NCBI GenBank assembly: GCA_041648915.1
Contig: JBAZOC010000001.1
Coordinates: forward strand, 112,960 to 176,959
Length of the DNA: 64,000 bases
Direction: 5' to 3'
Origin: Candidatus Omnitrophota bacterium
GTDB lineage: Bacteria > Omnitrophota > Gorgyraeia > Gygaellales > Profunditerraquicolaceae
In this document: positions 17,485 to 18,027 of the stretch, piece by piece
Layout: each line of letters starts with the position of its first letter
How positions within the stretch are numbered: the stretch's first letter is position 1
Made by a program: the position numbers and the translations under genes
Notes under the pieces: model-generated
Seen by the model: only the letters and a program-made list of their open reading frames with translations
Told to the model about the DNA's origin: nothing
Database searches by the model: none

Positions 17485-17644
17485 ACACCTTAAAGTTTTT
17501 GTCTAGTGCAGTCCTACCGAGCTATAGCGAGGTAGGACTAATGTGCCCCTGGCAGGAATTGAGCCCCCGCTATTTTTTATCCGGCGAAATCCTTGCGAGC
17601 GCAGCGAGCAAGGACGAACCTGCCTCATCCTGCCCGAATATTTA

Positions 17645-17718
17645 TGCCCCTGGCAGGAATCGAACCTGCCACACGCAGTTTAGGAAACTGCTGCTCTATC
17701 CTTATGAGCTACAGGGGC
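17645..17718 (-). tRNA. tRNA-Arg (anticodon CCU)
   Basis: The minus-strand read is GCCCCTG TA GCTC ATAAGGATA GAGC A GCAGT TTCCTAA ACTGC GTGTG GCAGG TTCGATT CCTGC CAGGGGC A. This gives a 7-bp acceptor stem, a D arm, an anticodon stem with a 7-nt loop (anticodon CCT) and a T arm. Confidence 0.8.
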
Positions 17719-17955
17719 AGATATCATTCCCCTTAAATATTCCCTTCCAGAACCAGATTTCAATTCTTTTTCGCGTTCTCGAGCAAAATTACGCGAAATA
17801 GATTTTTCGGAATAAAACAAAATCCAAGGTTTATAAAATTTTGTAGATTTTGTTTTTCCTGAGTTATGTTCTTTGATTCTATTTTCTAAATCCTTAGTTA
17901 TTCCAATGTATATTCTGTTGTCTTTAATTGACCTTAGAGCATAAACGTAATGCAT
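17680..17955 (-). CDS. GIY-YIG nuclease-domain protein (small, URI/Slx1/YhbQ-like)
   Basis: YVYALRS..DNRIYIGITKDLENRIKEHNSG is a canonical GIY-YIG core. The last ~12 codons of the ORF are specified by the tRNA-Arg gene itself, so the true C-terminus is uncertain. Confidence 0.6.
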   Translation of the reverse strand: MHYVYALRSIKDNRIYIGITKDLENRIKEHNSGKTKSTKFYKPWILFYSEKSISRNFAREREKELKSGSGREYLRGMISAPVAHKDRAAVS

Positions 17956-17958
17956 GTA

Positions 17959-18018
17959 TTTAGGAAACTGCTGCTCCCTGCCTGCCGGCAGGCAGGTATC
18001 CTTATGAGCTACAGGGGC
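17959..18018 (-). pseudogene. degenerate duplicate of the 5' half (nt 1-39) of tRNA-Arg(CCU) carrying a 20-bp perfect palindrome insertion in the D-loop
   Basis: The fragment is identical to the tRNA from the acceptor stem through the anticodon loop, except that CCTGCCTGCCGGCAGGCAGG (17977-17996) replaces 3 nt of the D-loop. It abuts the GIY-YIG start codon. Confidence 0.6.
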
Positions 18019-18027
18019 AAGTTTGTC

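Follow-up and report, generated by a model that had tools for sequence, protein, structure and literature searches.

It is well established that free-standing endonucleases may spread either through intronless homing or through collaborative (trans) homing, where one site is the meeting point of a free-standing endonuclease with an intron that lacks an open reading frame (ORF), as covered in a review that also cites, as its reference B105, an endonuclease whose specificity is for the tRNA-fMet anticodon region (PMC3984707). SegB of phage T4 is described as a GIY-YIG homing endonuclease located in a tRNA gene cluster (PMC2330249). Here, we describe a locus in a 64,000-nt stretch of DNA, hereafter the window, from a Candidatus Omnitrophota bacterium (contig JBAZOC010000001.1, positions 112,960 to 176,959), in which a small GIY-YIG nuclease gene is positioned between a partial, palindrome-bearing copy of tRNA-Arg(CCU) and the intact gene for the same tRNA. 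We put at roughly 0.55 the probability that this locus represents a copy of a free-standing nuclease cassette of the homing type, which carries, or lies against, a functional tRNA and employs tRNA sequence as portable homology. Judged from sequence, the corresponding cassette family, present in at least five bacterial phyla, looks like undescribed selfish DNA for which tRNA genes serve as landing sites.

The cassette shares several properties with free-standing homing endonuclease genes such as T4 segB, mobE/I-TevIII and cyanophage F-CphI with its psbA intron: the nuclease gene is located outside an intron and beside a conserved target; a fixed site is polymorphic for its presence or absence (empty in the related loci L081-L085, occupied in the window, L001, L002 and L206-L209); and the tRNA allele of L001 bears what may be a sign of co-conversion or capture. 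In contrast to these systems, however, the cassette is chromosomal across bacterial phyla rather than phage-borne; its protein comprises only a ~78-residue catalytic domain of the UPF0213/Slx1 branch, whereas the Seg and I-TevI enzymes possess a DNA-binding domain; and it brings its own homology arm, i.e., a copy of the 5' part of its target, together with a conserved 20-nt palindrome. Bacterial group I introns of tRNA genes (tRNA-Leu(UAA), tRNA-fMet, tRNA-Arg(CCU) and tRNA-Ile(CAU)) and intron-encoded endonucleases directed at the anticodon region of such genes represent a second point of comparison, as their target likewise lies in the anticodon loop, and tRNA-Arg(CCU) itself reportedly hosts a bacterial group I intron, according to Reinhold-Hurek and Shub in 1992. 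The window tRNA is nevertheless intron-less, the ORF is positioned upstream of the tRNA and not inside an intron, and the enzyme family is a different one. A third comparison concerns the end of the mitochondrial atp6 gene of Allomyces, where a mobile endonuclease gene is said by Paquin, Laforest and Lang (in 1994) to have brought along a foreign gene end and to have displaced the resident one. The likeness consists in an endonuclease gene accompanied by a replacement piece of an essential gene, with the resident piece left behind as a pseudo-fragment (compare L001, below); atp6, however, is protein-coding and organellar, is a single case, and lacks a conserved hairpin in the displaced fragment.

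The locus occupies a 543-nt gap between an adenine phosphoribosyltransferase-like (APRT) gene (18567-18028) and a gene for a PHP-domain hydrolase (17484-16819), and is read here, like these two genes, on the minus strand. The gap commences with the 5' tRNA copy, and the spacing between the APRT stop codon and the start of this copy equals that observed for the tRNA in the empty sites L081-L085. Its first segment (17997-18019) comprises one flanking nucleotide and nt 1-22 of tRNA-Arg(CCU) (18018-17997) and is identical to 17697-17719 at 23/23 positions, while its second segment (17959-17976) comprises tRNA nt 23-40, reaches the 3' side of the anticodon loop and is identical to 17679-17696 at 18/18 positions. 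The two segments are separated, between tRNA nt 22 and 23, by a perfect 20-nt palindrome, designated PAL (CCTGCCTGCCGGCAGGCAGG; 17977-17996), the insertion of which at the D-loop/D-stem junction is clean and without target duplication. As RNA, PAL is predicted to fold into a hairpin of -13.9 kcal/mol, and a PAL-like 20-mer with three or fewer mismatches has a chance expectation of 0.01 per window. Following a spacer of 3 nt, the 91-codon GIY-YIG ORF (17955-17680; PF01541, E = 3.7e-18) extends into the intact, intron-less tRNA-Arg(CCU) (17645-17718, 62.4 bits in Rfam; 17644-17719 according to ARAGORN), the anticodon loop of which provides the TAA stop codon of the ORF.

Downstream of this tRNA, a 3' tRNA fragment is found in two pieces. 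The left side (17615-17627) corresponds to the T-stem's 5' strand together with the beginning of the T-loop (TGAGGCAGGTTCG; 12/13 positions, or 92%, identical to 17661-17673), and the right side (17544-17565) to the 3' part of the T-loop and the 3' strands of the T-stem and acceptor stem (20/22 positions, or 91%, identical to 17645-17666). The homologous loci L081, L208 and L001 show that these represent a single fragment, the T-loop of which is split by ~49 nt that include a terminator-like hairpin (TCCTTGC..GCAAGGA followed by TTT; 17590-17614). This hairpin was read directly from the letters and was not called by a simple terminator scan; it is also present in L081, while the version in L208 (CACTTGT..ACAAGTG) has retained its pairing through changes on both sides, and the homologous fragment of L001 carries PAL in its T-loop. 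A further, near-perfect hairpin of 15+15 nt (AGTCCTACCGAGCTA / TAGCGAGGTAGGACT; 17510-17539) lies between the 3' fragment and the start of the PHP gene, and is missing in the closest relative, L081, where the 3' fragment runs directly into the PHP start region. Each of the elements that the initial annotation had recognized, i.e., the minus-strand tRNA, the upstream partial copy ending on the 3' side of the anticodon loop, the palindrome within it and the ORF that runs into the intact tRNA, was recovered at, or 1-3 nt from, the position assigned to it. Three details were revised: the ORF had been placed 2 nt from the fragment, the 3' pieces had been taken for two separate degenerate copies, and the last 12-13 codons of the ORF were set apart from the domain as read-through into the tRNA.

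It is well known that tRNA genes are classic integration sites and that integrated elements are flanked by partial tRNA repeats. One of the options put forward in the initial annotation was therefore repeated integration and excision at a tRNA attachment site, in which case the repeats would be scars of an integrase and the GIY-YIG gene its left-over cargo. The 3' fragment downstream of the tRNA would fit such an origin. However, the unit measures merely ~300 nt and holds only the 91-codon ORF between its repeats; the duplicated part is the 5' part, from nt 1 onward, whereas it is usually the 3' part that an integrase duplicates; one and the same ORF stands beside the repeats at every tRNA; and relatives were found neither on plasmids nor on viral contigs. 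This candidate was discarded because no integrase or recombinase is present in the window locus, the neighbours of which are the APRT and PHP genes, or in any of the related loci, which agrees with the initial reading of the locus as lacking a recognizable integrase, and we consider it scarcely credible. The remaining options of that annotation, namely a homing-type mobile gene or a tRNA-targeting selfish element, are those favored by the comparative data presented below.

The match of the nuclease to PF01541 amounts to 66 bits against a cut-off of 22.6 and covers profile positions 1-73 of 78. The conserved domain spans approximately codons 1-78, and the last 12-13 codons (79/80-91; SAPVAHKDRAAVS) represent read-through into the tRNA gene, the conservation of this C-terminal tail being due solely to its tRNA sequence. 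The exact protein is on record from a Candidatus Omnitrophota metagenome-assembled genome (MAG), and many homologues with 65-80% identity are likewise 91 residues long and end in ...APVAHKDRAAVS, which is the translated 5' half of the tRNA, while two homologues possess N-terminal extensions that correspond to the translated upstream tRNA copy including PAL. Indeed, many database entries of the family are chimeric ORF calls, with C-terminal tails derived from tRNA and N-terminal extensions derived from PAL (LPAGRQ, PACRQA, CLPAGR) or from tRNA T-arms, and others fuse two tandem units; some of the proteins hold two GIY-YIG stretches.

The closest solved relatives, and the sole ones found, are the UPF0213 proteins BH0048 (1ZG2, E = 5e-6) and EF2693 (1YWL, E = 1.3e-5), which align across residues 2-76, whereas the group I intron endonuclease family TIGR01453 scores 21.8 bits against a cut-off of 56. 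No other Pfam domain, DNA-binding domains included, was found in the window protein by a Pfam search. Residues Y5, Y16, G18, R26, H30, N31 and E62, which occupy the GIY, YIG, Arg, His/Asn and Glu motif positions, are invariant or nearly so among homologues and are predicted from the family to have catalytic roles. Past E62, the invariant columns in a sequence-based (not structure-based) alignment are K63, L65, K66, G68, E72 and L74, with no conserved Asn, while a conserved C-terminal Asn is a trait of the UvrC/I-TevI lineage (PMC1564403). Among seven Omnitrophota copies of the ORF, dN/dS ranges from 0.09 to 0.18 with a pS of 0.58-0.87, i.e., synonymous sites are near saturation. By its closest relatives and its domain-only make-up, the window protein is a minimal UPF0213/Slx1-like GIY-YIG protein, UPF0213/YhbQ-like and not I-TevI-like, and it is under purifying selection. 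The family is a large one, with 686 cluster representatives (at 50% identity) matching the core at E <= 1e-10 in a library of 1.8 billion proteins. The UPF0213, or bacterial Slx1-like, group was characterized by Dunin-Horkawicz et al. as mostly vertically inherited and of repair type, with no mention of tRNA genes (PMC1564403). The cassette proteins are closest to UPF0213/YhbQ proteins (1ZG2, 1YWL) by sequence and share their domain-only architecture, yet the clade that we describe stands out by its association with tRNA genes, with tRNA copies and with PAL, none of which is found in a related clade near the root of the protein tree. A search with PADLOC for a role in defense returned sub-threshold matches only.

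To what extent this arrangement recurs is apparent from 80 related loci (one genome per species), which were retrieved as best matches to the Omnitrophota query with two search patterns, one located in the domain and one encoded by the tRNA. As the latter is specific to the tRNA-Arg(CCU) tail of that query, it was presumably the in-domain pattern that led to almost all of the remaining loci. The carriers belong to Omnitrophota, Bacteroidota (including many cultured Flavobacteriia), Ignavibacteriota, many Patescibacteria and Verrucomicrobiota, along with MAGs labelled Gammaproteobacteria; no relatives were found on viral contigs or plasmids. A same-strand tRNA adjoins the ORF in 55/80 loci, at distances from ~40 nt inside the ORF end to ~60 nt beyond the query-matching region, and these tRNAs represent at least 15 anticodon types: Arg (five anticodons), Leu (five), Met, Asn, Lys, Val, Thr, Gln, Ser, His and Ala. 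Of these 55 loci, 45 possess a significant partial copy of the cognate tRNA, comprising its 5' part, no more than 200 nt upstream of the ORF. All but one of the copies (44/45) start at tRNA nt 1-2, and 43/45 are split by an insert of at least 14 nt, which is PAL or a clade-specific variant of it, and beyond which the tRNA numbering resumes cleanly. Counted from anticodon nt 34, the ends of the copies range from -12 to +15, with 24/45 located within -3 to +7. The insert sites are loops or loop-stem junctions, most commonly nt 21/22 or, in tRNA-Leu, the 5' side of the D-loop, and more rarely nt 9-12, the junction of anticodon stem and loop or, in 3' fragments, the T-loop.

Variations on this layout were also encountered. 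A mirror-image arrangement, consisting of tRNA, ORF and a hairpin-bearing 3' copy, is present in L032, L043 and L061, while a hairpin-bearing 3' copy has been retained downstream in L040 (Kuenenbacteria) and L073 (Verrucomicrobiota). In the latter (2890-3470), where 5' copy, ORF, tRNA-Ser and 3' copy follow one another, the tRNA copies are split by an unrelated structured insert of 62 nt (TTGCCACGTG...CTGCACGCG) in place of PAL. Two different GIY-YIG units in tandem, each with its own tRNA 5' copy, precede a single tRNA-Asn in L046 (~2880-3610), the first copy bearing a 43-nt hairpin of the CCTGCCCGCC...GCGGGCGGG type in addition to PAL, and the second bearing TCCGCCAGCTGGCGGA.

In a neighbor-joining tree, the nuclease proteins cluster by tRNA type across phyla. 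For example, one clade is composed of tRNA-Leu cassettes from Patescibacteria, Ignavibacteriota, Flavobacteriia, Bacteroidota and Omnitrophota, and the Omnitrophota Arg(CCU) copies cluster with Asn copies from Saccharibacteria. Hairpins follow the same groupings: flavobacterial tRNA-Met cassettes possess their own 30-nt hairpin and one Patescibacteria clade is marked by a CCCGCCTGCAACGC...GCGGGCAGG hairpin. The members of the clade near the midpoint root have neither an adjacent tRNA nor PAL, while an adjacent tRNA is present in two members that flank this clade. The ORF consequently travels together with a hairpin type, an insertion position and a tRNA type, as would be expected of a cassette that is copied whole into the same tRNA across genomes.

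The initial annotation had proposed that relatives be searched for an empty site, and clean empty sites were indeed found among Omnitrophota. In L082-L085, whose PHP proteins are 80-84% identical to that of the window, only ~10 nt, tRNA-Arg(CCU) and another 10-60 nt separate the APRT gene from the PHP gene. L081, which is the closest relative (PHP 93%), has kept the tRNA and the interrupted 3' fragment but is devoid of the 5' copy, PAL and ORF, and the 300-nt repeat unit is precisely what sets it apart from the window; a deletion of just this type would result if the 5' copy recombined with the tRNA. Occupied sites are found in L001 and L002, where the same cassette is embedded in a matching gene order (PPDK, sigma factor, APRT, cassette, PHP, lipoprotein and outer-membrane protein) even though the neighboring proteins are 62-90% identical to those of the window (PHP 66-74%). 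L208 has the same syntenic occupied site, as far as its sequence reaches, and tRNA-Arg(CCU) is again the site of the cassette in L206, L207 and L209. The closer Omnitrophota relatives are thus empty, and the more distant ones occupied.

The tandem amplification observed elsewhere is the reciprocal product of such repeat recombination. In the cultured strain Zunongwangia atlantica 22II14-10F7 (L014, 2546-3844), 4.1 tandem units with a period of 316 nt and 98% identity precede an intact tRNA. Each unit consists of tRNA-Arg(UCG) nt 1-32, PAL, nt 33-38, a spacer and the GIY-YIG ORF, resulting in four nearly identical nuclease genes in a row. Further tandem units are present in L209 and L011.

In L001, the acceptor stem of the working tRNA (GCGCCUG/CAGGCGC) differs from that of the fragments which flank it (GCCCCUG/CAGGGGC). 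These fragments, a 5' copy of nt 1-42 with PAL in its D-loop and a 3' fragment of approximately nt 46-76 with PAL in its T-loop, reconstitute, when joined, the tRNA of the empty sites L082-L085 base for base. This mismatch of alleles indicates that, in the lineage of L001, the resident gene received, immediately 3' of its anticodon loop, a segment made up of the ORF, another allele of tRNA-Arg(CCU) and 17 nt.

The 3' side of tRNA-Arg(CCU) is a second insertion hotspot in Omnitrophota. Downstream of this tRNA, L209 (480-700) contains a ~190-nt GC-rich insert flanked by a duplicated tRNA 3' end plus 38 nt of flank, and L206 (1812-1875) contains T-arm-like hairpins (GGGCGGGTTCGAACCCGCCC). Two copies of a GGGGACTGTCCCC palindrome are located at the otherwise empty site of L085 (2455-2495).

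The same comparisons permit a second explanation to be weighed, namely that of a domesticated or housekeeping module, in which a vertically inherited GIY-YIG gene and a hairpin-bearing tRNA leader, co-transcribed with the tRNA, serve the host in tRNA-gene maintenance or repair, in processing or regulation of the co-transcript, or in defense, the relatives differing through repeat-mediated loss and not through gain. The shared gene order of the window, L001, L002 and L208 in spite of diverged neighbors (62-90% for L001 and L002) is in line with this notion, as is the tRNA-Gly/cassette/tRNA-Leu order common to Muricauda, Allomuricauda and Flagellimonas. Homing endonuclease genes are expected to decay after fixation, and the low dN/dS at saturated synonymous sites, together with the loss-like appearance of L081 with its retained 3' fragment, likewise fits a module that is maintained for the host. 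The UPF0213/YhbQ group has, moreover, been described as mostly vertically inherited (PMC1564403). Against this, the three-part architecture has been rebuilt at 15 or more tRNA species, in every case accompanied by a cognate tRNA copy, protein clades track tRNA type across phyla and not taxonomy, the flanking fragments and the central tRNA of L001 are different alleles, tandem arrays reach 98% identity, and the neighbors, varying as they do between loci, do not suggest a host function. We therefore regard a domesticated module as unlikely. The initial annotation had held that the same architecture in related genomes, if devoid of signs of insertion and associated with a conserved YhbQ-like housekeeping gene, would speak for an ancient fixed arrangement; in part this is the case, the protein being YhbQ/UPF0213-like and the arrangement syntenic among relatives whose neighboring proteins are only 62-90% identical.

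A connection to group I introns emerged from three loci (L058, L021 and L003) that had first been scored as having no adjacent tRNA and in which a split tRNA follows the ORF. In L058 (3261-3500) and L021 (324-544), the tRNA-Asn(GUU) genes of two Patescibacteria contain group I introns of 220-240 nt in the anticodon loop, with RF00028 scores of 61.6 and 60.5 bits, respectively (threshold 50, E ~1e-15). These introns escaped the default filters of Rfam or inputs of several kb and were found when ~280 nt were searched alone; ARAGORN missed the corresponding tRNAs. In both loci the 5' exon ends in U and the intron in G. The end of the 5' copy, which bears PAL, coincides with the 5' splice site in L058, and in L021 it precedes that site by 1 nt. 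In the Omnitrophota locus L003 (~630-945), tRNA-Arg(UCU) carries an anticodon-loop insert of ~300 nt with GTGTAGAGACT-like and CCGAGC-like motifs, the 5' exon again ending in U and the insert in G; this insert has no RF00028 match and is left unclassified by Rfam, and may be a divergent group I intron. The tails of the homologues P0031, P0037 and P0041 (...DRASAFQIS) suggest the same split tRNA in other genomes. By analogy, the layout of L058 and L021 corresponds to the configuration of collaborative, or trans, homing and would there solve the problem of self-immunity. For the window, RF00028 returned no match in 16800-18800 (E up to 10) nor in 17500-18030 searched alone (531 nt, E up to 1), and a group I intron was thus ruled out at settings that do find the introns of L058 and L021. 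The suggestion that the locus derives from a tRNA intron that was lost while its endonuclease gene stayed behind accordingly draws indirect support from these intron-bearing relatives, while the window itself is, as had been stated at the outset, without a recognizable intron core.

The cross-phylum conservation of the 20-nt palindrome as a component of the cassette is the main point that was absent from the initial annotation. An exact or one-mismatch PAL lies 32-99 nt upstream of the ORF in 38/80 loci, and variants are found in most others, in which the stem base CCTGCC...GGCAGG is kept while the apex is longer and of varying length. The remainder of the 80 loci, ~470 kb in all, is essentially devoid of PAL, the few extra copies adjoining a cassette or being part of tandem cassettes (L014). 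PAL is identical at 20/20 positions in the window, L001, L206, L207 and L209 despite near-saturated synonymous sites, implying that its sequence is constrained or has been repeatedly re-supplied. A second 20-mer, PAL-B (CCTGTCTACCGACAGGTAGA), equals PAL with five transitions and is found nested in PAL at three positions and in both orientations, adjacent to PAL within a single D-loop, and in the form of three consecutive copies in a T-loop (L002, 2942-2981; L044; L054; L208, 1434-1453; L043, 3319-3378), and thereby behaves like an independently inserting module.

Short palindromic mobile repeats are known in the form of REP/REPIN sequences with their RAYT transposases, the GC clusters of yeast mitochondria, the double-hairpin elements of Allomyces and the Rickettsia palindromic elements. 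PAL resembles these repeats in being short, hairpin-forming and dispersed in intergenic and sometimes genic positions, and in its strong enrichment beside one nuclease gene, but it is only 20 nt in length, its sequence is kept across phyla, and its copy density in the window is low. With respect to REP/RAYT in particular, the enzyme is of the GIY-YIG type and not an HUH/Y1 transposase; a functional analogy is possible, with mobilization of PAL being hypothetical. A scan of metagenome contigs for exact PAL returned at least 120 stretches (L086-L205). Among the matches listed, to which all figures on solo copies refer, about 7-8 of 128 exact copies adjoin a GIY-YIG gene of this family and a few more lie in tRNA fragments, the rest being solo copies from sediment, groundwater and freshwater metagenomes that are mainly intergenic, in some instances form the apex of a longer hairpin or are part of short tandem repeats, and in a few cases are coding. 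Stems of at least 7 bp flank 5.8% of the solo copies compared to 1.6% of control positions, and a shared direct 8-mer flanks 10.7% compared to 1.9% of controls. This enrichment is real but modest, and the proposal that PAL always inserts into hairpin loops accordingly obtains weak support from the solo copies, while the proposal that PAL is specific to the cassette was abandoned, since most exact metagenome copies are solo. PAL is hence a dispersed mini-repeat in its own right, and its near-obligatory place in the tRNA copy of the cassette is far beyond chance.

Some individual copies are of note. PAL is in frame as LPAGRQ just ahead of the GDGxNDxP motif of a P-type ATPase in L178, splits an IS200/RAYT-like transposase just ahead of its HUH motif in L127, and splits an IS91-like transposase in L098. 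The window itself contains a second, PAL-like palindrome with two mismatches (CCTGCCTACCGGCAGGCAGC; 39297-39316), which is intergenic, far from tRNA or GIY-YIG genes, and resembles the solo copies of the metagenomes. Three further models, in which the PAL halves are terminal inverted repeats, a circle is cut at PAL, or a long staggered cut gives rise to a target duplication, were considered from the anatomy and rejected, since each fails on the clean tRNA numbering across PAL or on the presence of cognate sequence on both sides.

These properties raise a further explanation, in which the true partner of the nuclease is PAL itself. In one variant the nuclease would mobilize 20-nt PAL mini-elements in a REP/RAYT-like manner; in the other the PAL hairpin, as RNA or single-stranded DNA, would act as a handle for the nuclease while the tRNA-derived arms pair with the cognate tRNA gene, making the tRNA copy a functional specificity module and not a scar. 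The near-obligatory position of PAL before the ORF and its virtual absence from the remaining ~470 kb, its identity across lineages with saturated synonymous sites and the co-variation of hairpin type with protein clade are consistent with this explanation, although the last of these may be plain co-inheritance. The constant stem base combined with a variable apex would fit recognition of a hairpin rather than of a duplex, and the clean, repeated insertions (two PALs in one copy; PAL-B nested in PAL in both orientations), the dispersal of solo PAL over many metagenome contigs and the lack of a DNA-binding domain in the enzyme point in the same direction. On the other hand, an 80-residue GIY-YIG protein acting as a transposase or guided nuclease is without biochemical precedent, the flanks of solo PAL are weakly enriched for hairpin loops (5.8% versus 1.6%), the window holds just one exact and one near copy of PAL in 64 kb, and a guide of the same sense as the tRNA would also hit the tRNA gene of the cassette itself. 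A system centered on the hairpin is, in our opinion, distinctly improbable, and we see an equally slim chance for its guided or PAL-spreading form.

According to the homing-type interpretation that we prefer, the nuclease would break cassette-free cognate tRNA genes in or near the anticodon loop, and the break would be healed through the copying or capture of donor DNA consisting of the nuclease gene and an intact tRNA, so that tRNA function would be preserved. The recipient's own 5' part, and sometimes its 3' part too, would be left as a flanking fragment. The 5' fragment and the tRNA would from then on constitute portable left and right homology arms that may allow entry into the same conserved tRNA gene in unrelated genomes, and recombination between the direct repeats would delete or amplify the ~300-nt unit. 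PAL, travelling with the ORF, might serve to break homology and to disable the fragment, and the nuclease may bind PAL. A group I intron in the adjacent tRNA would confer self-immunity, as in collaborative homing.

A number of points weigh against this interpretation. The protein is a catalytic domain of ~78 residues with no DNA-binding module for long-site specificity of the kind possessed by I-TevI or Seg, and its cleavage activity is a prediction. The cassette's own tRNA is intact and intron-less, and thus a potential target, in the window and in most loci, which leaves self-immunity unexplained. Synteny, saturated synonymous sites and strong purifying selection fit vertical inheritance with recurrent loss equally well, possibly with a host function, and a YhbQ-like protein that is syntenic across diverged Omnitrophota may reflect long residence and possibly a role at the level of the host. 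The scarcity of PAL copies beside a nuclease gene implies that PAL has an independent life. Furthermore, the protein tree is a rough neighbor-joining tree of 78-residue cores, the 80 loci are best matches to an Omnitrophota query as opposed to a random sample of the family, and L001 is the single clear case of co-conversion or capture.

Within the searchable literature (subscription-only publications not covered), we found no bacterial paper containing the PAL sequence or its halves and no report that links UPF0213-type GIY-YIG genes to tRNA genes, keyword matches being confined to fungal mitochondrial and phage work. Among free-standing homing endonuclease cassettes, the combination of a minimal nuclease, a self-carried homology arm derived from the target and a palindrome conserved across phyla is unusual.

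For genome annotation, the consequence is that these cassettes create pseudo-tRNA fragments, chimeric ORF calls and intron-split tRNAs that are missed by pipelines. The comparison has also brought to light a 20-nt palindrome conserved from Flavobacteriia to Patescibacteria. If the guided variant were true, the cassette would represent a nucleic-acid-guided homing nuclease that is reprogrammed at each new tRNA landing, and in either this or the PAL-spreading variant a subset of UPF0213 would gain a function of a kind unknown for GIY-YIG enzymes. If the homing-type interpretation is true, the large clade of minimal UPF0213-like GIY-YIG proteins, so far without a biological role, would be provided with one. 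The cassettes would then show how a selfish gene can cross phyla without harm to its hosts by means of a near-universal tRNA sequence, a self-carried homology arm and a replacement tRNA, and the loci in which a free-standing endonuclease accompanies an ORF-less intron would represent natural intermediates on the proposed route toward a mobile intron.

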